A stretch of 19,160 nucleotides of DNA from Bermanella sp. (GCA_036960565.1 JBALXQ010000013.1:96051-115210); one strand, 5' to 3'; positions 1,904 to 18,639 are shown, counted from the first letter of the stretch. The notes: generated by a model not told the origin, from the letters alone. Numbers and translations are program-made.

Positions 1904-3787
1904 ATGGCCGATCTTTCAGTACTTATGCCTATCATCATGGGCGTTGGACTTATTTTTGTTTTACTTATGGGAGTGGCATCACTCTTTAAATCTTTTTATA
2001 TAAAGGTAGATCAAGGCACAGCGTTAATTGTCAATGATATGAGTCATTCGCCTAAGGTTCATTTCACGGGTGCTTTGGTTTACCCCATTATAAATAAAAA
2101 AGAATTAATGAAAGTATCACTTATTACCTTGGAAGTTGACCGTCGTGGAAAAGACGGGCTTATTTGTGCTGATAATATGCGTGCCGACATCACTGTAGCC
2201 TTTTATTTACGCGTGAATGAAACCACCGAAGACGTTCTAAAAGTGGCTAAGTCAATCGGTGCTGATAGAGCGTCCGATAAAGATGCTGTAAATCAGTTAT
2301 TTAATGCCAAATTTTCAGAAGCCTTAAAAACCGTCGGTAAGCAAATTGAATTTGTTAATCTGTTTGAAAACCGTCAGGAATTTCGCGAGAAAATCATTGA
2401 AGTGATTGGCGATGACCTAAACGGTTACATACTTGAAGATGTTGCCATTGATTACCTAGAGCAAACTCCTAAATCATCTTTGGACCCTACAAATATCCTA
2501 GATGCTGAGGGTATTCGTAAAATCACCGAATTAACCGCTAAGCAAAATGTTCAAACCAACGATTTAGAACGTGACGAAGAATTGGCCATTAAGAAAAAGA
2601 ACGTTGAAACAGTAGAAGCGATGTTAGAGCTAGAGCGTCAGCAATCAGATGCCGAAGCCAAGCAAGAGCGTGAAATTGCAACGATTCGTGCACGTGAAGA
2701 AGCCGAAACTAAAAAGGTACAGGAAGAAGAACGCCTTAAAGCTGAAGGTACCACGATTCAAGTTAATCAGGACCTTGCGGTACAAACTGAAAATCAACAG
2801 CGTGAAATTGAAGTAGCTGAGCAAAATCGTCAACGTGCAGTGGCCATCGAGCAAGAAAAAGTAACTCGTGCTCGTGATTTAGAAATTGTTTCTCGTGAAC
2901 GAGAAGTAGACCTTCAAAGAATAGAAGCTGAAAAAGCCATTGAAATTGAGAAAAAAGAAATTGCGAATGTAATTCGTGAACGAGTGGTGGTCGATAAAAC
3001 CGTTGCGGTTGAAGAAGAGCGTATTAAAGAAGTGCGTGAAATTTCTGAAGCCGATCGAGATAAACAAACAAAAGTTCTCGCAGCCGAAGCTAAAGCCGAA
3101 GAAGAAAAGATTAAACAAGTGAAGGCGGCAGAAGCTGAAGAAATTTCAGCCAAACATAAAGCCATAGAAATCACCACATTGGCCCAGGCTGACTTAGAAG
3201 CCGTGGCTAAAGAAGCGGATGCTAAGAAAAAAATGGCTGAAGGCGTTCAAGCCGAGCGTGCTGCACCCGGTCTTGCCGATGCGAAAGTTCAGGAAGCGCG
3301 TGCTGATGCTCTTGAAAAAGAAGGTTATGCAGAAGCGAACGTTATTAAAGCTAAGGGAGACGCTGAAGCTGATGCCTTGTTAGGTACTGGCCGAGCTGCT
3401 GCAGAAGTGACTCGTGAGCAATTTAAAGCCGAAGCCGATGGCCTTGTTGATAAATTTGATGCCATGAACAACATGAGCGATCAAGCCCGTGACCACGAAG
3501 AGTATCGTATGGGTCTTGAAGTGGCATTGAAAGAAGCACTGGCCACCATTGAAGCTGGTAAAGAAATATCTAAAGAAAATGCTTCTGTTCTGGCGACCGC
3601 GCTTCAGAAAGCCAAAATTGATATTGTTGGTGGTGAAGAGCACTTCTTCGATAACTTTGCCAAGTCACTGTCTATCGGTAAAGCCGTAGATGGTTTAGCA
3701 CAGAAAAGTAGTGTGATATCAGGATTGATTAATAAGGTGGTGCAGCCTGCTGCAAAAACGACCAGTGATGAAAACGTGAAAGCCTAA
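1904..3787 (+). CDS. Flotillin-like SPFH/band-7 family membrane protein (YqiK-like) with long E/A/K-rich coiled-coil region
   Basis: N-terminal TM helix (LSVLMPIIMGVGLIFVLLMGVASLF). The SPFH core (VDQGTALIV...ITLEVDRRGKDGLICADNMRADITVAFYLRV) is followed by a ~280-aa EA-rich flotillin-type coiled coil. It is paired with the NfeD-like gene upstream. Confidence 0.8.
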   Translation: MADLSVLMPIIMGVGLIFVLLMGVASLFKSFYIKVDQGTALIVNDMSHSPKVHFTGALVYPIINKKELMKVSLITLEVDRRGKDGLICADNMRADITVAFYLRVNETTEDVLKVAKSIGADRASDKDAVNQLFNAKFSEALKTVGKQIEFVNLFENRQEFREKIIEVIGDDLNGYILEDVAIDYLEQTPKSSLDPTNILDAEGIRKITELTAKQNVQTNDLERDEELAIKKKNVETVEAMLELERQQSDAEAKQEREIATIRAREEAETKKVQEEERLKAEGTTIQVNQDLAVQTENQQREIEVAEQNRQRAVAIEQEKVTRARDLEIVSREREVDLQRIEAEKAIEIEKKEIANVIRERVVVDKTVAVEEERIKEVREISEADRDKQTKVLAAEAKAEEEKIKQVKAAEAEEISAKHKAIEITTLAQADLEAVAKEADAKKKMAEGVQAERAAPGLADAKVQEARADALEKEGYAEANVIKAKGDAEADALLGTGRAAAEVTREQFKAEADGLVDKFDAMNNMSDQARDHEEYRMGLEVALKEALATIEAGKEISKENASVLATALQKAKIDIVGGEEHFFDNFAKSLSIGKAVDGLAQKSSVISGLINKVVQPAAKTTSDENVKA

Positions 3788-3863: not shown

Positions 3864-6800
3864 ATGGCACAGCCTAATGAACCTTCTGCTGCTGATAATC
3901 TTGTAGATGAAGCCGTTGCACAAGGAGGGGCTTATGAAATTATTCGTAAGCGCCTTGTGGAGCAGGGAAAGCAGTTAAACAGCGAAACCTCTCAATTAAA
4001 CCAAGCAAGACTTAAAGAATTTGGTGCCACGGATATTGATGTGGTGGCTCGGGTGCGAGTGCGCACAGAAAATAACTGCATTGCCCGAGATATTGTTCAG
4101 GTAGGCGAGCATCTATTATTTGGCTATAACGTTTTTATAGGCTTAAAAAAAGAAACTAAAATAGAAGATGTTTTTGCTCTGTTTGATGTAGTTGAGACAG
4201 ACGGCAACTTTGAAATGAAGCCTGTTTCTATGGCGGGTTCTTTTTTATCACAAAGTGGTTTTGTAAATGATTTTGAAGAACTGTACCGCTATTACAAACA
4301 TACCAAGCTTGTTCAGCTCACGATTAAAGGTGGCCGTTTATTGGCGGGCTTTCAAATTGGTGAACGTCTAGAAGATATTCGTGTTTTCCGCTGGTCTATT
4401 TCAGCAGACGGCAAAGATATTCAATATATTGATAACCGTGGCGAACGAGACATTCAGTTACCGCCTGCTTATGATTTTGAGTGGATAGAAACACATCGCG
4501 ATCACCGCATTAATGGTCGCCACCCTCACGTTAATATTCTAGATAAAATATTTGTAGAGACCATTAATGGCGATCTAACCATTAAGGTGGAAAACAATAC
4601 CGAGGATGGCTTTGGCATATACCGAGAGCCAGTAGAAGATAAATCTCAATCACTAGATGATGCAAAAATAAGTTATGCCCAGGTAGGCAGTCTTATATTA
4701 TTAAAAATACTGCCTTATCGCGAAGAGCAGTGGCGTTATCTTATTTTTAATACGACTACTCAAGACGTATTACGAGTGGATGCCATTGGTCAGTCTTGTG
4801 TTCAGTTGCCAGAAGATCACGGTATTATTTTCCCCGGTGGATACTACTTACAAAGCGGTGAATACAAGTCTTTTGATGGTGAAGAAAACAGCCTTACCTT
4901 TAAAAGGGCCATCAAGTCTCCAAATGGCGAAGATGTATTATTTGTATTTTACGACCCAGAAGAAGGTTCAGTAGGGTTATTCTTTTACAACCTAATTAAT
5001 AAAGAATTACAAAACCCTATATATGGGCACGGTTATGCCTTAGCTGAAGATGGCCGACTGGTTATTTTCTCAGCCGAAAACGAACCCACCCGCATTCATC
5101 CTATGCAAATCTGGTCAACACCTTATGTTAGCGATGAATACGCCAGTCAAATCCCAGCTAGCCAAACTTTCTTAGGGAAAATTGGTAATGCTGAATTGGT
5201 TCGCGGGGTATCGGATTTATACAGTGTTTACCGAATGCTGGAAAAACAAGATGTATCTTCTCGTTTATATGAGGAAATCAGCAAGTCGGCCAAAAAAATA
5301 TTTGATGATCACTATTGGATAGAAAGTAGCGACACCCAAGCGATATTTGATGCGTTAAAAAATATTGCTGCTACCTCAGAGCTTGTAATTGATGAATTTG
5401 AAAAAGTTCAGAGTATTCGTCAGCAGTCTGTTAAAGCATTATCGGATGCTCAAAAACAGCAACAATCAATTATTCAAGAAGTGCGCCCAGACAATTGGCA
5501 AACGGCAGAAGAATTTGTAGATGCGCTAGGAAAAATCCGTCGCCAGCGTGGCCATTTAATTACCATTAAAGAATACCGGTATATTGATGTCACCAAAATT
5601 GAGTCTTTAAATACCGATCTTACTAAGATTGAAGACTCGTTAAGTCGACAAACTGTATCCTTTTTATCAGATGAGAAAGCCATAGAGCCCTACCTTGATA
5701 AAATAGACAATATCAATAGAGAAATTGAGCAAGCCCAAACCATTGCCGTGCTTAACCCACTAATTGAAATAGTGGAAAGTACGGCATCTGGTTTAGATTT
5801 ATTGTCAGAATTAATGGGTTCGTTAAAAGTACAGGATCCTACGGTTCGCACTAAAATAATAGATGCTATTTCTCAAGTTTATTCTAAGCTGAATCAAACC
5901 AAAGCCCGTGCCAAGCACAAGCAAAAAGGTTTAGGCTCGGAAGAGGCCATTGCCCAGTTTGGTGCTCAGTTTAAACTGTTCTCGCAAAGTATTACCAACG
6001 CACTAGGCTTGGCCATCACGCCAGATAAATGTGATGAACAGCTATCTAGGTTGCTGGTGCAACTAGAAGAGTTAGAAAGCCAATTCAGTGATTTTGATCA
6101 GTTCATTGCCGACATTTTAGATAAGCGTGAAGAGATCTATGAATCCTTTGAAAGCCACAAACAAAGGCTGTTAGACGAGCAACAACGTAAAGCGCAGTCG
6201 GTGTTTGATGCCTCAAGTCGAATTTTGTCTAGCATAGAAAAGCGTTCACTTAAATTTAGTGAAAGTGATGAGCTAAATACCTACTTTGCCTCCGATTCAC
6301 TGGTCATGAAAATTCGTGAGCAAGCGGATGTATTGCGTGGCCTTGGCAGTGAAGTAAAAGCCGATGATATAGATGCGCGCTTTAAAGCCATTAAAGAACA
6401 AGCGATACGCTCCCTAAGGGATAAAAGCGATATCTATGAAGCCGGCGGCAGTATTATTAAACTGGGTTCACGGCATAAGTTTTCGGTCAATACTCAAGAA
6501 CTTGATTTAACGATCTTGCCAAAAAATGGCGAGCTGAATGTCCATTTAACGGGCACCAATTATTTTGAAGCCATTACCAAACCCCAGTTATTGGCATTAA
6601 AAGATTATTGGGAAATGTCTTCTGAATCTGAAACCCCTCAGGTCTATCGTTCAGAATATTTGGCATTTTTAATATTGCAGTCAGCGCGCTCTGGAGATTT
6701 TGGTCTTTCATTGGAACTATTGAATAATGCAATAGCCGATACAGATCAGCTTAATAAGCTAGTGCAAGAATTCGCGGCACCGCGCTACAAAGAAGGTTAT

Positions 6801-9158
6801 GAAAAAGGCGTTCATGATCACGATGCACAATTAATATTAAGCGCACTGGTGCCAGCCATAACACGGGCAGAAGAACTAAGTTTTGATCCCTTATGCCGTG
6901 CCGTCGCGCAAGTTTTTTGGGCTAACATTAAAGGCAAAGAAACGGGGCGCAAAACACTTAATGATAAACCTAGCGAGGGGTTATCTTATAGTACTTGGGC
7001 AGAGCGCGCTCAATCGGCCAAACAAATGCAATCGGTATTCTCAAGCACCGATGCGCTTAATTTGCTGGCTAAAGAGATTGAAGACGCTATCACGCAGTTT
7101 TTAGCCATTAACCCGATAGATGTCACGCCGTTGGATATTAAACGTGCTGCTGACTATTTGGTGGCTGAATTGTCTCGTGAACGTTTAGAATTTATATCCA
7201 GCAAATACGCCACTGAATTGGTTGAGGAGTTAAAGCGCTCTTTAGATGAAAGCTCTTGGCGTCAGTACCAAGGCGCGTTAAAAAAGATGTTGGGCTTTCC
7301 GGCTCAGCGTTGGAATTTAACCCGTGCTTGGTTAGAAGCATTAATACGAGACAAAAAGTTAGATCACCTGGCTCGTTATATTCCTGAAGCCATTGCATTA
7401 ATTAATGCCGATGAACGTATCTCTAGGCGCGCTACTCAAGCAGATCTTGAGTTAAATATTGAAGGTTTATTGGGAGATCACCGCACCATAGAAAGCCAAA
7501 AGCTATCGTTTGCTATAGATGCGTTTTTACAGCGACTAGAACACCATCAGCAAGTGGTAGTACCAGCTTATCAAGAATACTTAAAAGTAAGGCAAGACAT
7601 TATTGCAACCGAGCGAGCAGACTTAAAGCTGGAGTCCTTTAAGGCGCGGCCATTAAGTTCGTTTGTTAGAAACAGGCTGATTAACGAATCTTACCTGCCG
7701 CTCATTGGCGATAACTTTGCCAAGCAGATGGGCACAGTGGGGGATAATAAGCGTACCGACCTCATGGGTTTGTTAATGATGATCTCACCGCCTGGTTACG
7801 GTAAAACCACGCTCATGGAATATGTGGCCAGTAAGCTGGGTTTAATTTTTATGAAGATCAACTGTCCCTCTCTTGGGCACGATGTGTTGTCTCTTGATCC
7901 AGCACAAGCGCCTAATGCCACCGCTCGCCAAGAGTTAGAAAAACTCAACCTAGCGCTTGAGATGGGTGAGAATGTGATGTTGTATCTTGATGATATTCAG
8001 CACACCCATGCTGAGTTTTTACAAAAGTTTATTTCCTTGTGTGATGGTACTCGCCGTGTGGAAGGTGTGTGGAAGGGCGAACCCAAAACATACGACATGC
8101 GCGGCAAGAAGTTTAGCGTGGTCATGGCCGGTAACCCTTATACCGAATCGGGTGAAGCCTTTAAAATCCCCGACATGCTCGCCAACCGTGCAGACATTTA
8201 TAACCTAGGCGACATCCTTGGCGGAATGGATGAACAGTTTGCCTTAAGCTATATCGAAAACTCACTCACCTCCAACCAAGTGCTGGCGCCTCTCGCCACG
8301 CGTGAAACCAGCGATGTATACAAGTTAATTAGTTTGGCGCAAGGCGCAAACGTAGCGGCGACAGATTTAAAACACCAATACAGTGGTGCCGAAATTAATG
8401 AGATCACTCAAATATTTAAAAAAATGTTTGTGATTCAAGATGTGGTTCTGAAAATTAACATGCAATACATTGCCTCAGCCGGGCAAGATGATAAATACCG
8501 TACCGAGCCTTCGTTTAAATTACAGGGCAGTTATCGCAACATGAACAAGATGACCGAAAAAATTTCATCGGTTATGAATCATGATGAGTTAATGCAAATG
8601 ATCAATGATCATTACATTGGTGAAGCTCAGTTGCTTACAGCAGGGGCCGAGGGCAACCTGTTAAAACTTGCCGAACTGCGAGGCAATTTAACCCAAGAGC
8701 AAGACCTGCGCTGGAAACAGATTAAAAAGGACTTTTTAAGAAACAAAACCATGGGCGGTGATGACGCCGATGTAGGCGCTAAAGTAGTGGTGCAATTGGC
8801 TGACCTAGCCGAAGGCATGAAAAATATCAGTAATGCCGCACTTATGGCCGCTAAACAAAATGCCATTAAAAAGCCTGATGTTAACCAAGCACTGTCTAAT
8901 ACGTTAGAGCAGGGCATGGATAAACTATTAAAGGTGATTAAAGACAATAAACCTAATGTGGAAGTGGTTAATCAGCCGGTGCCGGGTATTGGAAAAATAT
9001 TAACGGTTTTGGCCGACACCATAGAACACAGTATTTTCCCTATTGTAAAAAGTATGGATAAAAAGCTCGATATCGATCTTAAAACTCATGAAAAAATGAA
9101 AGAAATTTCTGAGCAATTAAGAAACCTAGAAATAGATGCGGCCATTAAAAAACTATGA
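3864..9158 (+). CDS. Giant (1764-aa) uncharacterized protein: long N-terminal non-ATPase region and coiled-coil middle, with one AAA+ (AAA_5-like) ATPase module near the C-terminus
   Basis: Uninterrupted ORF with an AAGGA RBS 7 nt upstream. Walker A is MISPPGYGKTTLMEYV (~nt 7785-7812). Walker B is VMLYLDDIQH (~nt 7981-8001), DD rather than DE. A sensor-like VVMAGNPYTE...ANRADIY motif follows. No other recognisable catalytic motifs are seen by eye. Confidence 0.75.
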   Translation: MAQPNEPSAADNLVDEAVAQGGAYEIIRKRLVEQGKQLNSETSQLNQARLKEFGATDIDVVARVRVRTENNCIARDIVQVGEHLLFGYNVFIGLKKETKIEDVFALFDVVETDGNFEMKPVSMAGSFLSQSGFVNDFEELYRYYKHTKLVQLTIKGGRLLAGFQIGERLEDIRVFRWSISADGKDIQYIDNRGERDIQLPPAYDFEWIETHRDHRINGRHPHVNILDKIFVETINGDLTIKVENNTEDGFGIYREPVEDKSQSLDDAKISYAQVGSLILLKILPYREEQWRYLIFNTTTQDVLRVDAIGQSCVQLPEDHGIIFPGGYYLQSGEYKSFDGEENSLTFKRAIKSPNGEDVLFVFYDPEEGSVGLFFYNLINKELQNPIYGHGYALAEDGRLVIFSAENEPTRIHPMQIWSTPYVSDEYASQIPASQTFLGKIGNAELVRGVSDLYSVYRMLEKQDVSSRLYEEISKSAKKIFDDHYWIESSDTQAIFDALKNIAATSELVIDEFEKVQSIRQQSVKALSDAQKQQQSIIQEVRPDNWQTAEEFVDALGKIRRQRGHLITIKEYRYIDVTKIESLNTDLTKIEDSLSRQTVSFLSDEKAIEPYLDKIDNINREIEQAQTIAVLNPLIEIVESTASGLDLLSELMGSLKVQDPTVRTKIIDAISQVYSKLNQTKARAKHKQKGLGSEEAIAQFGAQFKLFSQSITNALGLAITPDKCDEQLSRLLVQLEELESQFSDFDQFIADILDKREEIYESFESHKQRLLDEQQRKAQSVFDASSRILSSIEKRSLKFSESDELNTYFASDSLVMKIREQADVLRGLGSEVKADDIDARFKAIKEQAIRSLRDKSDIYEAGGSIIKLGSRHKFSVNTQELDLTILPKNGELNVHLTGTNYFEAITKPQLLALKDYWEMSSESETPQVYRSEYLAFLILQSARSGDFGLSLELLNNAIADTDQLNKLVQEFAAPRYKEGYEKGVHDHDAQLILSALVPAITRAEELSFDPLCRAVAQVFWANIKGKETGRKTLNDKPSEGLSYSTWAERAQSAKQMQSVFSSTDALNLLAKEIEDAITQFLAINPIDVTPLDIKRAADYLVAELSRERLEFISSKYATELVEELKRSLDESSWRQYQGALKKMLGFPAQRWNLTRAWLEALIRDKKLDHLARYIPEAIALINADERISRRATQADLELNIEGLLGDHRTIESQKLSFAIDAFLQRLEHHQQVVVPAYQEYLKVRQDIIATERADLKLESFKARPLSSFVRNRLINESYLPLIGDNFAKQMGTVGDNKRTDLMGLLMMISPPGYGKTTLMEYVASKLGLIFMKINCPSLGHDVLSLDPAQAPNATARQELEKLNLALEMGENVMLYLDDIQHTHAEFLQKFISLCDGTRRVEGVWKGEPKTYDMRGKKFSVVMAGNPYTESGEAFKIPDMLANRADIYNLGDILGGMDEQFALSYIENSLTSNQVLAPLATRETSDVYKLISLAQGANVAATDLKHQYSGAEINEITQIFKKMFVIQDVVLKINMQYIASAGQDDKYRTEPSFKLQGSYRNMNKMTEKISSVMNHDELMQMINDHYIGEAQLLTAGAEGNLLKLAELRGNLTQEQDLRWKQIKKDFLRNKTMGGDDADVGAKVVVQLADLAEGMKNISNAALMAAKQNAIKKPDVNQALSNTLEQGMDKLLKVIKDNKPNVEVVNQPVPGIGKILTVLADTIEHSIFPIVKSMDKKLDIDLKTHEKMKEISEQLRNLEIDAAIKKL

Positions 9159-14052: not shown

Positions 14053-14198
14053 GTTAACTCTATATAAATCAAAGGGTTGTGAATGTGGTTGGCATTTAAC
14101 TGTGTGGACAAAGGAATCGCCTGACTAGCTGCCCATTCACTTGGTATTAGGAATGGCGCACAGGATAGCAAAACTCACCTTAAACCACTATCGGGGAT

Positions 14199-14284
14199 GG
14201 CGGATTGTGGCGGGCGTTTTAGGAAATGAGGGCTATGGGAGTGAGGGCGAACGGGTGGAGAGGAGTGAGTGCTTAAATTGAAGA
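14199..14284. repeat. Copy A of a ~85-bp GA-rich direct repeat (tggcggattgtggc...gagggcgaacgggtggagaggagtgagtgcttaaattgaaga), ~90 % identical to copy B at 16491-16581
   Basis: Direct alignment of the two regions. They differ mainly by a short indel (gggcg vs cggaattctaa) and three point differences. Copy A lies between the hipA-like stop and the mutS start. Confidence 0.7.
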
Positions 14285-14387
14285 AGGAAGTAAGACTAAT
14301 AAGCTGCTGAATTCTAACGGGCCAGCTTGCATGGGGCCGCAGGGTCCATGTGGTTGATTATATCTAACCCGGGAGGTTCAGGATCAA

Positions 14388-15890
14388 TTACTCTCGCCGA
14401 TTGTGGTTTGATCCAAAGGGCTTAGTCTGCTTGTGTTTAGAATCAGGGTGATTGGCGGTAGCGCCATGTGTGCGTTTTGATTCAAAGGGCTTAGTCTTCC
14501 TGTTTTCAGGTCCTGGGTAAACAGGGGTAACGCCATGTGAATACTCCTCAAGCCTTTTCACTAAAAGCGTGTGATTGGCAGTTGAGATGTCAGCCAATTT
14601 ACTCACCATTCTAATTTCACTGTCTAAATACAAATCAGCCGATACTTCCTTAATGACAGATAAGATTGAAGACAAAGCTTCATCACAAAACCTTAAATAA
14701 ATTTTCATTAGTTGCCTGCCCCCTAAACCCGTATCTTGAAAATACAGATCAAGGTCGGATCGTTTTATCTCTTGTACACATCGTACTGCCCCAAAATTCA
14801 TGGCCATTAGATGCTCCAACGGATATACCTGCGTTGAGACCAAATCATAGGCGGGCGTGAGTGTTAAGCGGCCGTTGTCTAAATGCAGGAATGAAAAATT
14901 CTTGGCATGGGCATCATCGTTACCGCAAATAATGCTAAAAAATATTCTGAAACCGCATTCTTGCAAATCCTTAATAGGTAACGTGCTCTTGTCTCTAATG
15001 GTGGTAAATAATTCTTTAATTCCGGGTCCAGCTTTATACCCCGGCATTCCGGTATCTGTATTCATTTCATATTTACTGCCAGGGGGAAAACCGCATATTT
15101 GGCAAAGGTCTTCTTGATGAATACGTTCAATATGGCCGCCCGAAATCTTACGGTCGTATCTTTCTACCAATAAGGCAGTGTCTTCATCACCATCGGCGTT
15201 GTGGTAATCCAGTAATGTGACAGGGGCAACCGTTAAACCTGATCGGGCCGCGGCAGTCATGCAAATATACTCATTAATCACAAGGTAGGGGAACTCTTTA
15301 TCGTTACGTGGAGGCTTAATGATATGAGTGGAAGGCTGGTCTAGGGAGTCATAAAAATTTAGGTTTCCATCATCATTTATTTCCACAAATACAGGCAGCT
15401 TAGGCTGGGCCCCGGCCAGACTCATACGCGTTCTATTTGGAGTTCCGTCTTCTTTATGATTTTTATCATTTACGTGAAATGGATTAACTTCAATCTTGTT
15501 AATGAGGTTGCTTAGCTGGGTTTCATTTAGTTTTTTAGATTGGCCTAAAGCCGGTTTTAAATAGTCTTGTGGGAACAATTCAATGGCACCGGCGAAATCC
15601 CCACCCATCACTTCAATTAAACGCTGAATATCCTCTGAGTTTAAACGCAGAATTTTTTCAATTCGCTCCATAACCTTTCCTTCGGGGAAGAGGTTGCTTA
15701 AAAATATGAAGGTTTCTTTATTGTTATAGGCTTCACTTCTAATAGGAAACCGCACAGACAATATAGGTGTGCCTGCCACAGCATTATCAACGTAATCTTT
15801 TGAATATTGGAAGGCCATAGTGGCGTCGTCATTAAACGTTAGTTGCCCTACGTTTTTTGACAGAAGGTAAACATCAAATACAGCACTCAT
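14388..15890 (-). CDS. HipA-like Ser/Thr protein kinase toxin (HipA N-terminal plus catalytic domains) with a repeat-derived C-terminal tail
   Basis: MSLAGAQPKLPVF (HipA P-loop-like motif) and catalytic-loop GNDDAHAKNFSFL (DxHxKN). ~450-aa HipA-sized core plus a ~48-aa tail encoded by a ~65-bp tandem duplication. The start codon overlaps the upstream HTH stop (ATGA). Confidence 0.8.
   Translation of the reverse strand: MSAVFDVYLLSKNVGQLTFNDDATMAFQYSKDYVDNAVAGTPILSVRFPIRSEAYNNKETFIFLSNLFPEGKVMERIEKILRLNSEDIQRLIEVMGGDFAGAIELFPQDYLKPALGQSKKLNETQLSNLINKIEVNPFHVNDKNHKEDGTPNRTRMSLAGAQPKLPVFVEINDDGNLNFYDSLDQPSTHIIKPPRNDKEFPYLVINEYICMTAAARSGLTVAPVTLLDYHNADGDEDTALLVERYDRKISGGHIERIHQEDLCQICGFPPGSKYEMNTDTGMPGYKAGPGIKELFTTIRDKSTLPIKDLQECGFRIFFSIICGNDDAHAKNFSFLHLDNGRLTLTPAYDLVSTQVYPLEHLMAMNFGAVRCVQEIKRSDLDLYFQDTGLGGRQLMKIYLRFCDEALSSILSVIKEVSADLYLDSEIRMVSKLADISTANHTLLVKRLEEYSHGVTPVYPGPENRKTKPFESKRTHGATANHPDSKHKQTKPFGSNHNRRE
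14405..14540. repeat. Imperfect ~65-bp tandem duplication (ttgatYcaaagggcttagtct...gcgccatgtg) inside the 3' end of the HipA-like ORF
   Basis: Two consecutive similar units are read directly. They encode the KTKPFESKRTHG / KQTKPFGSNHNR repeats in the predicted C-terminus. Confidence 0.5.
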
Positions 15891-16294
15891 GTTTTAAACT
15901 CCATTTTCACACCCAGTGTATGCAAGGCGACTAAAACCTTATCTAGCATCAGTGTTGGCTTGTTAGCTTCAAGATTTGATATGAACTTAGTAGAGAGGCC
16001 ACTAAACCCTGCAAGTGATGCCTGTGTAAAGCCGAGAACCGACCTGCTTTCTTTTACTAATTTACCAAGGTCAATATCTTTGCTGATAGGGTGCAAACGA
16101 ATACCAAGGGTAGAGGTAAGGGCTAAAACTTTATCGAGTTGAACACTTGTTTTACCGCATTCAAATTGCGAGATAAATTTTACGCTTACATTTGCATACA
16201 TTGATACGGTGGCCTGATCTAAACCCAGCTCCTTTCTCCTTTGATTGCAAAGCAACCCTAGATAGCTGGCATCATGTGTTTGTTCAAAAAACAT
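15887..16294 (-). CDS. Tandem-XRE (two helix-turn-helix domains) transcriptional regulator, HipB-like antitoxin partner
   Basis: Two XRE-type HTH units: LGLDQATVSMYANVSVKFISQFECGKTSVQLDKVLALTSTLGIRL and LGFTQASLAGFSGLSTKFISNLEANKPTLMLDKVLVALHTLGVKM. ATG at 16294 is preceded by GAGGGA. The longer track ORF to 16381 would be read through the operator repeats and is rejected. The stop overlaps the hipA-like ATG. Confidence 0.7.
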   Translation of the reverse strand: MFFEQTHDASYLGLLCNQRRKELGLDQATVSMYANVSVKFISQFECGKTSVQLDKVLALTSTLGIRLHPISKDIDLGKLVKESRSVLGFTQASLAGFSGLSTKFISNLEANKPTLMLDKVLVALHTLGVKMEFKT

Positions 16295-16317
16295 AAATCC
16301 CTCAATAGGCGTTAGTT

Positions 16318-16490
16318 TTACCGTACGGACATATCTTACACATAATAGCTGGAGTTGGCAGGGGTTTAACCGTACGTACATATCTTATATTAAATAGAGC
16401 GAATTTGATGTGAATATAACCGTACGTACATATTTTGTATGAAATAGGGAGGTATGGAGCTGATTTTACCGTACGGACATATTATCGGGT
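16318..16490. promoter_or_regulatory. Array of four ~20-bp direct repeats (TWACCGTACGKACATATYTT) spaced 49-50 bp, covering the promoter and 5' region of the HTH/HipA-like operon
   Basis: The CCGTACG cores start at 16321, 16370, 16420 and 16469. Each contains a CCGTACGG or GTACGTAC palindromic core. The first unit lies ~27 bp upstream of the HTH start codon. Probable operators for the tandem-HTH repressor. Confidence 0.55.
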
Positions 16491-16581
16491 TGGCGGATTG
16501 TGGCCGGAATTCTAATTAGGAAATGAGGGTTATGAGAGTGAGGGCGAACGGGTGGAGAGGAGTGAGTGCTTAAATTGAAGA
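16491..16581. repeat. Copy B of the ~85-bp GA-rich direct repeat (see 14199-14284)
   Basis: Direct alignment with copy A. It lies just outside the operator array and ~280 bp upstream of the HIT gene. Confidence 0.7.
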
Positions 16582-16873
16582 CGCAATGGCGCAATGACGC
16601 TAAGGGGTGGTGTTAAGTGTTGGCGTTAAATGGTGGCGTGTTGAGTGGGCGCTGCCCTTGATTTAGGTCATTACCTTAATGTTAAGAACGGTAAATCCCA
16701 CATGGAAGAGTTGGAGAAATAGCATACAAGTCTGTATAAAGGTGTGGATTTGGGAAAACGTACCAGTTTTGGGCGATTTTTCTTCGGTATTCAATATTAA
16801 GTATCAGGCCAAAATGAACGGCGCTGCTCTGCTTAAACACGAGTGGTTTGCTTAGGTTGGAGTGGTTGGGTAC

Positions 16874-17296
16874 ATGGATATAAAGCACTTAGGCGAAGCT
16901 GCTAAGCCCTGCCCATTTTGCCAGATTTTTGCTGGCACCATTAATAAAGAAATACTGTTCGAAAACGAAACAGGCTTTGTAGTACGTGATGGCTTCCCCA
17001 TTACCAAAGGCCACACCCTAGTTATCCCCAAGCACCATGTGGGCAGCTTTTTTAAAATTACTCAGCAACAGCGCCAAGACTTGTTTGCCCTAATAGACCT
17101 AGCCAAAGTCCAGCTTGATAAAGAATTCCAGCCTGAAAGTTACAACATAGGCATAAACGATGGTGAAGCCGCAGGGCAAACCATCCCCCATTTACACATA
17201 CACCTAATTCCCCGTTATACAGAAGCAGGCAAAGACCCACGCGGTGGTGTGCGCTGGTTGGTGCCTGAAAAAGCCGACTATTGGAGCAATCCATGA
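16874..17296 (+). CDS. HIT (histidine triad) family nucleotide hydrolase/transferase
   Basis: Histidine triad motif IPHLHIHLIPR. The KGHTLVIPKHHV region matches the HIT fold. ~140 aa. The track ORF starts at a GTG (16862). The in-frame ATG at 16874 is preferred. The stop overlaps the next gene's ATG. Confidence 0.75.
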   Translation: MDIKHLGEAAKPCPFCQIFAGTINKEILFENETGFVVRDGFPITKGHTLVIPKHHVGSFFKITQQQRQDLFALIDLAKVQLDKEFQPESYNIGINDGEAAGQTIPHLHIHLIPRYTEAGKDPRGGVRWLVPEKADYWSNP

Positions 17297-18639
17297 GCTT
17301 AACCTCTTATCTAGCGGCTTTTTCCAAAATTAAAATGAACGCATCCACGGGCCATAGCAGCCCACATAAAGCGTGTTTGCTACTCGCCATTATGGATTTA
17401 GTGGCAAAAGAGCGTATTGCCAATAACCGCATTTTTTTAAATGACGAACTTACGCAGCACTTTAACCAACACTTTAGCCAAGTGGCCCAAGCCAGTGATA
17501 AAGCCGATATAAGTCAGCCGTTTTTCTATTTGCAGTCATCCAGCTTTTGGCATCACAAAGTTATCGCCAGTTTCGCGCAAGAATATAAACAACGCACAGC
17601 CCCCAAGCAGCGCAATCATGGCGGTATTAACAAAGTAAACCAGCTTATTCAATACGCCCATGTAGACCCCGAATTGTTTGAATACTTTAAAAGCCATACC
17701 GCCCGCGAAGCACTCACCCAAACACTATTAAGTAAGCTAAATTCCCAGCAACAACAAAAGCTACTTATACCAGCCAATGGTTGGAACTGGCATGAGTGTG
17801 AACTTATCGTAAACGACTATTTTGAAATGCTGGCACAAGAACTAAAGGGCAAAAATTACAATAAAGCGCAGCATAATCGCGACCTAGTGCAAGCCATGAA
17901 TGAAAGCCGAAATAGAAGTGCCATTGAGAACAAGCACCAAAATATCAGCGCTATATTAAATGAAATGAGAATGCCCATTATTGATGGCTATAAGCCCCTC
18001 AGTAATTACCAGCGTAATATCCTGCCCGATGTCATTGGTGCAACCTTGGCGCAGCGCCAAGATATTCATAAGCTTATTAAGCAAATAAACCAACAGCCTG
18101 TGGCAGTGCCCACGGTAAAAAACATACTGGATGCATTGGTAGCAACACCCCAAGCCAAAAAAGCGCCCACCAAAAAGAACCAGCAAGCAGAAAAAAGGGC
18201 GCAATACGATGTAAAGCCCTATCCACTGCCTAAAAAAGATTACCTAGCGCAAGAAGCCGTAAACCAAGCGTTAGGCCTAAAGGGTGAAGAATATGTACTT
18301 AACTACGAAAAAGCGCGCTTAATCCTAGCTGGAAAAGAAACCCTAGCCGACAAAATAGAGCACCTAAGCCTAGAAGATGACCGCTACGGTTACGACATTC
18401 ACTCGTACAGTAACAACGGCCAAGACCGCTTAATAGAAGTAAAAACCACCAATTACGACCGTTATACTCGGTTTTATGTGAGCCCCAACGAGTTAAACGT
18501 GTCCAATAAACGGGGGCAAGACTACCACCTATACCGTGTATTTAATTTCAGCACCGCCCCCCAACTATTTATTAGCCAAGGCAGTTTAGAAAGCGGGTAC
18601 AATCTCGCCCCATCTGCCTACGCCGCAAACATAAAGTGA
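17293..18639 (+). CDS. Uncharacterized protein with C-terminal DUF3883-like PD-(D/E)xK nuclease-fold domain, and an N-terminal domain of unknown family
   Basis: C-terminal YDIHSY...(N)...DRLIEVKTT...YHLYRV fits a D...ExK restriction-endonuclease-like core, as seen in DUF3883 domains common in R-M and defence loci. ATG 17293 overlaps the HIT stop (ATGA). The track start at 17281 is a TTG. Confidence 0.6.
   Translation: MSLTSYLAAFSKIKMNASTGHSSPHKACLLLAIMDLVAKERIANNRIFLNDELTQHFNQHFSQVAQASDKADISQPFFYLQSSSFWHHKVIASFAQEYKQRTAPKQRNHGGINKVNQLIQYAHVDPELFEYFKSHTAREALTQTLLSKLNSQQQQKLLIPANGWNWHECELIVNDYFEMLAQELKGKNYNKAQHNRDLVQAMNESRNRSAIENKHQNISAILNEMRMPIIDGYKPLSNYQRNILPDVIGATLAQRQDIHKLIKQINQQPVAVPTVKNILDALVATPQAKKAPTKKNQQAEKRAQYDVKPYPLPKKDYLAQEAVNQALGLKGEEYVLNYEKARLILAGKETLADKIEHLSLEDDRYGYDIHSYSNNGQDRLIEVKTTNYDRYTRFYVSPNELNVSNKRGQDYHLYRVFNFSTAPQLFISQGSLESGYNLAPSAYAANIK

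Follow-up and report, generated by a model that had tools for sequence, protein, structure and literature searches.

A four-copy operator-like repeat array upstream of a hipBA-type module with a predicted fused-HipB antitoxin in Bermanella sp.

Multi-operator hipBA promoters and the Bermanella locus

HipBA is the classic persistence toxin–antitoxin system, in which the assembly of HipA and HipB on multi-operator promoters is central to the control of the toxin; in E. coli the palindrome recognized by HipB is TATCC-N8-GGATA. HipB autoregulates transcription (PMC8262856), and the hipBA promoter of E. coli K-12 contains four HipB operators, O1–O4, through which HipB and the HipA–HipB complex exert autorepression (PMC8262856, PMC4150777), the gaps between those operators being uneven at 10, 21, and 10 bp (PMC4150777). 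In hipBA of S. oneidensis MR-1 (SO0705/SO0706), Wen et al. (2014) described four operators “equally separated by 34 bp” (PMC4150777), each with a spacer 2 bp shorter than that of the E. coli operator (PMC4150777). There, HipB by itself does not bind neighbouring operators cooperatively, and the DNA, which is touched by HipA as well, is bent by about 125° (PMC4150777). The C repressor of phage P2, an HTH homodimer that acts on two closely spaced, non-palindromic direct half-sites and not on inverted repeats (PMC2995052), offers a functional analogy only, since it is unrelated to toxin–antitoxin systems and lacks a 49-bp phased array.

We analyzed a stretch of 19,160 nt of Bermanella sp. DNA, hereafter the window, in which an array of four repeats sits upstream of a minus-strand operon composed of an antitoxin gene followed by the gene for a HipA kinase:

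15887–16294, minus strand: tandem-HTH antitoxin gene, 135 aa, with two HipB/Y4mF-type HTH domains
14388–15890, minus strand: HipA-family kinase gene, 500 aa, with Couple_hipA and HipA_C domains

As in other hipBA loci, the HTH antitoxin gene is located directly upstream of hipA and is translationally coupled to it, the two genes overlapping by 4 nt at the hipA start (15890). The toxin is a HipA-family Ser/Thr kinase (PF13657, 2.3e-18; PF07804, 6e-49) whose translation shows the motifs SLAGAQPK, GNDDAHAKN, and PAYDL, which we take, after the E. coli HipA, to be the phosphorylation loop, the catalytic motif, and the Mg-binding motif, respectively; and in a structure-library search with this HipA the closest solved structure was the S. 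oneidensis HipA (4pu3, E = 1.7e-32), with the E. coli HipA also among the closest. The antitoxin belongs to the Y4mF-family NCBIfam model TIGR03070 “couple_hipB”, against which it scored 117.2 bits in two matched stretches, above the curated cutoff of 71.65, and it matches HTH_3/HTH_19 as well. Where a hipBA antitoxin would be expected to have a single HTH and to dimerize on palindromic operators, this one carries two HTH domains in one chain, whose halves are 40% identical to one another. The kinase, the gene order, and the family of the antitoxin all make this locus a hipBA module, and its departure from the classical form, as read from the sequence, is a fused antitoxin together with polar, quasi-palindromic putative operators at an invariant period of 49–50 bp. 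A Bermanella sp. MAG has an annotated antitoxin of exactly this sequence, and a tblastn search of a plasmid collection found nothing, thus giving no sign of plasmid carriage.

The 34-bp gaps of S. oneidensis, when added to sites of 16 bp, amount to a 50-bp period, which matches the 49–50 bp observed here (PMC4150777). An initial annotation of this DNA had set the repeats apart from the operators of classical HipB, which distinction stands with respect to the sequence of the E. coli sites, but not with respect to the architecture, already known from the 50-bp-period array of S. oneidensis. In E. coli the gaps are uneven and HipB is a homodimer, whereas the period of the Bermanella array is constant. 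The S. oneidensis operators are true palindromes (GTGTA-N6-TACAC) for a homodimer of a single-HTH HipB, whereas the Bermanella sites have another sequence, unequal arms, and a fixed polarity, and face an antitoxin that is one chain with two diverged HTH domains; furthermore, the fourth S. oneidensis operator is inside hipB, whereas here all four copies are upstream of the preferred start codon. In the literature searched we found no description of a two-HTH or tandem-HTH HipB or of arrays such as these, and the terms “tandem” and “two HTH” are absent from the survey of Hip kinases by Gerdes et al.

We propose, with a probability of about 0.8, that the four repeats constitute the autoregulatory operator array of this hipBA-type module with its fused-HipB antitoxin, which protein we infer to be the one that binds them.

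As to the surroundings, mutS, identified from its translation, is situated further left of the operon, while to the right of the array a HIT-domain gene and a NOV_C-domain gene are on the plus strand. The HIT-domain gene (16862–17296) shares 16 nt with the NOV_C-domain gene (the region spanning 16862–18639), whose 452-aa product has its NOV_C domain at the C-terminus and gave a faint match to a model of a phosphorothioated-DNA restriction endonuclease; these two genes may form a defence-type pair. Elsewhere in the window, the ORFs 1110–1841 and 1904–3787 gave no Pfam match, and 3864–9158 is an ORF of 1764 aa. The HipA of the window, at 500 aa versus 458 aa in its relatives, has a C-terminal extension, the additional 42 residues being encoded by a 69-bp tandem duplication (14402–14539; 1.9 copies, 76% matches).

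Sequence, spacing, and conservation of the repeats

The region 16314–16485 contains four copies of a motif of 19–20 nt. The initial annotation had reported four direct repeats with cores starting at 16321, 16370, 16420, and 16469, and we confirm both the repeats and those positions. The copies, numbered from the gene outward, are the following:

16316–16337, minus strand: putative operator copy 1, proximal; gene-strand motif ATATGTCCGTACGGTAAAA, running from 16334 to 16316
16365–16386, minus strand: putative operator copy 2; ATATGTACGTACGGTTAAA
16415–16436, minus strand: putative operator copy 3; ATATGTACGTACGGTTATA
16464–16485, minus strand: putative operator copy 4, distal; ATATGTCCGTACGGTAAAA

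A 15-nt core, ACCGTACGKACATAT, is present in four copies starting at 16320, 16369, 16419, and 16468, at start-to-start distances of 49, 50, and 49 bp; that count was reached in 0 of 200 dinucleotide-preserving shuffles, whose mean was 0.04. The 20-mer TWACCGTACGKACATATYTT, of which no match would be expected by chance, is perfect at 16318, 16367, and 16417 and has one mismatch (…ATATTAT) at 16466, with no fifth match on either strand of the whole window. Tandem Repeats Finder assigned a period of 49 bp and 3.4 copies to 16314–16482, and a repeat search recovered the same four copies (16316–16334, 16365–16383, 16415–16433, and 16464–16482). The full 49–50-bp units are only weakly alike, at 66–74% identity, the strongly conserved part being the 19-nt motif, which on the gene (minus) strand reads ATATGTMCGTACGGTWAAA. 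The motif of copy 1 begins 40 nt ahead of the ATG at 16294 and overlaps a candidate –10 element, and copy 2, at position –89/–90, carries a “GTAC…GGTTA” variant that is retained in nearly all the close relatives.

The sites had been thought to lie five helical turns apart and thus on one face of the DNA, which interpretation the spacing contradicts: at 10.5 bp per turn, 49 bp correspond to 4.67 turns, or about –120° per step, so that neighbouring sites face directions some 120° apart. Roughly the same face would be shared by copies 1 and 4 only, which are separated by 148 bp or 14.1 turns, and the placement of all the copies on one face would require 9.87 bp per turn.

We rejected a CRISPR, whose identical repeats would have about 23 nt or more, because the motif has only 19–20 nt and the “spacers” are mutually homologous (the 66–74% unit identity) as well as conserved between genomes; the nearby ORFs that were scanned gave no cas-like domain. 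The iteron and transposon-end readings were also discarded, since both fail on anatomy.

For comparison we assembled some 20 close loci, at 62–99% identity (L001–L009 and L024–L033), from a protein search, exact-protein look-ups, and a metagenome scan; when a genome-contig collection was scanned with the antitoxin alignment, all that came up were remote relatives with a single HTH, at 26–42% identity, and the tandem family was not found there. L024 and L025 share the gene neighbourhood of the window; others of the close loci are found in different contexts, where the neighbours are a phage-type integrase, a 709-aa ORF, or MazG-like and Fic genes. All the close loci have the motif upstream of the antitoxin gene in the same orientation, in 2.5, 3, 4, or 5 copies, spaced mostly at 48–50 bp with single intervals of 46 and 52, and with the proximal copy beginning 40 nt ahead of the ATG (50 nt in the L001 group). 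Over 35 distinct copies the information content was high along 19 positions, maximal at C12-G13-G14-T15 and A17, and low in most of the spacer. Between orthologous loci, the substitutions per site were 0.046 in the motif and 0.162 between motifs, compared with about 0.18 at the third codon positions of the gene, and copy-specific variants were conserved.

The internal 8-bp palindromes that the initial annotation had pointed out are present in the array, as CCGTACGG in copies 1 and 4 and as GTACGTAC in copies 2 and 3. Their standing as the key feature was nevertheless not sustained by the relative at 62% identity, in which ACGAACGG or ACGAGCGG replaces CCGTACGG in all three copies and only CG-NN-CG survives; this changed core indicates that the 8-bp palindrome is not what is conserved, and that motif and protein vary together. 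The conserved core is the central CG-NN-CG/CCGWWCGG.

The DNA homology between this module and those located in unrelated contexts stops at 16482/16483, where the distal copy ends and thereby marks the module boundary, and at about 14514–14528, which is the normal end of hipA. Since the homology stops at the end of the array, the array belongs to the mobile unit, together with hipA and the antitoxin gene. On both sides of the module, at 14194–14289 and 16487–16586, stands one copy of a directly repeated element some 100 bp long (94% identity over 71 nt), whose right copy starts 4 bp past the distal operator and to which an element adjoining the L024 array is related; this bracketing repeat might have arisen as an att-like duplication or as the scar of an insertion, or it might be an intergenic element of dispersed type.

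A full-library HMMER search yielded about ten further clusters of two-HTH proteins of some 134 aa, at 26–40% identity. Upstream of the antitoxin gene, all 7 of the distant lineages having at least 100 nt of sequence there displayed 2–3 direct repeats at 49 or 50 bp:

L069: motif ATATTACCGTTCGGTAC, spacing 50 and 49 bp
L070: motif ATATTACCGTYCGRTG, similar to that of L069, spacing 49 and 49 bp
L072/L073: motif TATAACCGATAGGTAAAA, spacing 49 and 49 bp
L075/L076: motif GTCGCCGTTCTTGCATAT, spacing 49 bp
L077: motif TAATATGCATGTAC, spacing 49 and 49 bp
L078: motif ATAACCGAACGGTTAT, spacing 50 and 50 bp
L079: motif TATCGAACGGTAAT, spacing 49 bp

Wherever the contig continues (L069, L070, L071, L072/L074, L078, and L079), hipA follows the antitoxin gene, the exception being L075/L076. 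In these two loci (L075, 2916–3405; L076, 953–1442) the tandem-HTH gene and its two repeats at 49 bp have no hipA called downstream, and in L075 a Tn7 TnsA-like/rve gene is located upstream; the tandem-HTH gene there may be an orphan antitoxin or a regulator. The L078 sites are almost perfectly palindromic, for which reason the asymmetry of the arms is not a universal correlate of a fused antitoxin.

The strongest evidence for a functional array whose spacing is itself under selection is that the period stays fixed as the motif diverges along with the protein. The proposal that these are operator-like sites of the HTH/HipA operon was supported upstream of every tandem-HTH/hipA relative examined, where position, orientation, and spacing are all conserved. 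The same observation weighs against the notion that the array is a functionless minisatellite, or else a recombination or transposition end of the mobile module. That notion might be encouraged by a copy number varying from 2.5 to 5, by the coincidence of the distal copy with the module boundary, and by the occurrence of other tandem repeats in this genome, including another of 49-bp period at 13–166; but a spacing of 49–50 bp is kept across lineages with 26–40% protein identity and diverged motifs, the copy-specific variants are shared by orthologous loci, and the repeats are on the promoter side of the module only, with no recombinase gene as a constant neighbour, so that we find this explanation hardly credible. 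The repeat at 13–166 (3.3 copies, cut by the window edge) has units that look hairpin-like by eye, and a perfect 25-bp repeat of 3.2 copies occupies 713–793; both of these repeats fall between genes, and neither has a sequence related to that of the four-copy array.

Phased arrays occur in single-HTH relatives as well. In the Y4mF-type (TIGR03070) loci L036–L067, from high-GC metagenomic contigs, we observed 2–5 perfect 16-bp palindromes, CCGCACGTWCGTGCGG, spaced at 61 bp in 22 of 35 intervals and at 59–62 or 30–31 bp in the rest, and the next gene was hipA in all 6 loci checked; no description of these arrays was found in the literature searched. These loci resemble those of the fused branch in belonging to the same TIGR03070 family, in their rigid spacing, and in a central CGTWCG, whereas they differ in the period (61 or 30–31 bp versus 49–50) and in having perfect palindromes instead of unequal arms. 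Phased multi-operator arrays with a central CGWWCG therefore appear to be common in the family, beyond the fused branch.

Start codon, promoter, and alternative functions of the repeats

The assignment of the repeats to non-coding DNA depends on where the antitoxin gene starts, and the elements relevant to that question and to the promoter are these:

16299–16303, minus strand: Shine–Dalgarno sequence GAGGG, separated by 4 nt from the ATG at 16294 and shared by every close relative
16333–16338, minus strand: candidate –10 element TAAGAT, inferred from the alignment; TARAAT in relatives (TAGAAA in L007)
16356–16361, minus strand: candidate –35 element CTGCCA (4/6), 17 nt upstream of TAAGAT
16387–16414, minus strand: alternative promoter-like site TTCACA-16-TAATAT from a consensus scan, between copies 3 and 2

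If translation started instead at the ATG at 16381, a 164-aa protein would result, whose N-terminus would be encoded by copies 2 and 1. In agreement with this possibility, the frame from 16381 is open, and close relatives as well as the L001 group likewise have an open frame from their corresponding ATG; gene callers gave 164-aa versions (P0003 and P0007); and the differences within the extension show a mild excess at third positions, their fraction there being 0.46 versus 0.59 in the gene. The 30-codon open stretch has, however, an estimated chance probability of (61/64)^30, or about 0.24, and the ATG at 16381 is part of the ATATG motif of copy 2 and lacks a Shine–Dalgarno sequence. Moreover, the long ORF spans only 2 of the 4 copies and reads them in different frames, 49 not being a multiple of 3; at first codon positions, substitutions accumulate in the extension at about 3.4 times the rate seen in the gene; in L069 inspection reveals an in-frame TAA within the proximal repeat, 7 codons ahead of the ATG; and in all the distant lineages the array is upstream of the annotated start. 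It is mainly the Shine–Dalgarno sequence, the frame arithmetic, and the distant loci that make the long ORF probably incorrect, and we regard a coding function for the repeats as most improbable. The preference of the initial annotation for the short start is accordingly upheld by the GAGGG conserved before the ATG at 16294 and lacking at 16381, which preference leaves the repeats non-coding. The 164-aa public gene models (P0003 and P0007) thus probably add 29 residues that are not translated. In several relatives the public gene calls start at an ATG inside the –90 repeat, which pattern looks like a systematic annotation artefact.

The candidate –10 TAAGAT overlaps the first 2 nt of copy 1, and the –35 is kept as CTGCCA, CTGCTA, or CTACCA in close relatives. 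With these elements the proximal copy lies, as had been claimed, between the promoter and the start of the HTH gene, in that it overlaps the conserved –10-like TARAAT and precedes the ATG; and the proximal copy, at least, is probably in the 5′ UTR. The promoter consensus scan found fewer matches in the region than in shuffles, and since it did not select the TARAAT/CTGCCA pair, we place the promoter there tentatively; the alternative TTCACA-16-TAATAT that it proposed is not conserved in relatives.

These elements raise the question of whether the repeated units might themselves be tandem promoter modules, with the AT-rich arm (TAAGAT, TAAAAT, or TAATAT) acting as a –10, or else sites for a host factor. 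A –10-like hexamer precedes or overlaps every copy in close and distant lineages alike, and the consensus scan placed its second promoter-like site between copies 3 and 2; the resemblance of the upstream arms to –10 boxes implies that part of the conservation could reflect RNA polymerase and not the antitoxin. The most invariant positions, however, are CGGT.A and CG and not the AT-rich arm, the –35-like elements of the distal units are poor or absent, and the G+C core both co-varies with the antitoxin lineage, which neither RNA polymerase nor a host factor would explain, and resembles the palindromic operators of the single-HTH relatives. We consider this explanation decidedly unlikely.

Tandem direct repeats upstream of a toxin operon also recall the ToxI-type arrays, and this likeness, together with the probable location of at least the proximal copy in the 5′ UTR, would be compatible with a function as RNA, either as a type III antitoxin-like array or as a structured leader. 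The array, though, had no Rfam match at E <= 1, and its predicted folding did not surpass that of shuffled sequences (z = –0.13); conservation within each 49-nt unit is confined to 19 nt, the toxin, which is paired with a protein antitoxin, is a kinase and not an endoribonuclease, and a scan found no terminator-like site between the array and the genes. A function as RNA consequently seems to us very improbable, and a type III ToxI-like array in particular was rejected on the conserved 19 of 49 nt, the lack of an Rfam match, the z of –0.13, and the kinase toxin.

Predicted antitoxin structure and a model for occupancy

A first AF2 run with 7 close sequences (pLDDT 72, pTM 0.45) was set aside in favour of a more diverse alignment, and the deeper and diverse alignment yielded a compact model (pLDDT 88.8, pTM 0.79), in which each half is predicted to consist of four helices plus a short strand (66–68 and 132–134), the halves being joined by a short linker at about residues 69–75. 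Each HTH domain superposes on HipB of L. pneumophila and of S. oneidensis at 0.8–0.9 Å (0.8 Å for S. oneidensis), the putative recognition helices being SVKFISQFE in domain 1 and STKFISNLE in domain 2, and Foldseek against the PDB matched single HTH domains only, with no solved single-chain tandem analogue among the matches. In HipB dimers such strands form a small sheet between the two molecules, which contributes to keeping the dimer together, and because of that sheet we read the antitoxin model as an intramolecular pseudo-dimer, which geometry is suggested by the AF2 confidence and the secondary structure. The model further suggests that one antitoxin chain fills one 19–20-bp site; that a chain should bridge repeats 49 bp apart is argued against by the short linker and the compactness of the model. 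The quasi-symmetry of CCG-WW-CGG would fit two equivalent HTH units, and the unequal arms would fit the divergence of the HTH domains.

On the operator-array reading, each putative 19–20-bp site would be composed of the quasi-palindromic core CCG-WW-CGG between unequal AT-rich arms, which on the gene strand are ATATGT upstream and TWAAA downstream, and would be taken by one antitoxin chain, which probably carries HipA and whose two HTH domains, paired within the chain as a pseudo-dimer, would each occupy one half-site. Given the overlap of the proximal site with both the –10-like TARAAT and the predicted transcription start, its occupancy should exclude RNA polymerase and so block transcription, while the upstream sites at 49–50 bp would add further antitoxin or antitoxin–toxin units. 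By analogy with the S. oneidensis array, the distance at which adjacent HipA–antitoxin–DNA complexes pack or touch most likely accounts for the invariant spacing; yet a cooperative reading of the 49-bp spacing is without direct precedent, given that the S. oneidensis HipB alone binds without cooperativity.

A more specific version, which we judge rather unlikely, would make the 49-bp spacing the structural ruler of a three-start helical nucleoprotein filament. Three steps of 49 bp amount to 147 bp, or 14.0 turns, and HipB pseudo-dimers with HipA would then occupy successive operators, each rotated by a third of a turn, with the HipA molecules touching along the array and with repression and toxin sequestration set by the number of filled sites. 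If this were true, the array would act as a sensor of the toxin:antitoxin ratio, peculiar to a fused-HipB branch not described before.

The locus does not reveal a new kind of system. In practical terms, 164-aa gene models beginning inside a repeat are probably wrong, and further copies of ATATGTMCGTACGGTWA elsewhere in the Bermanella MAG would point to a wider regulon. The protein may serve as a natural single-chain HipB for dissecting half-site recognition. Together with its relatives, the locus defines a branch in which the antitoxin dimer appears to be fused into one chain and the 49–50-bp period is kept at 26–40% identity; and the spacing rule, with 49–50 bp here, 50 bp in S. oneidensis, and 61 or 30–31 bp in the high-GC single-HTH loci, points to a higher-order assembly on DNA.
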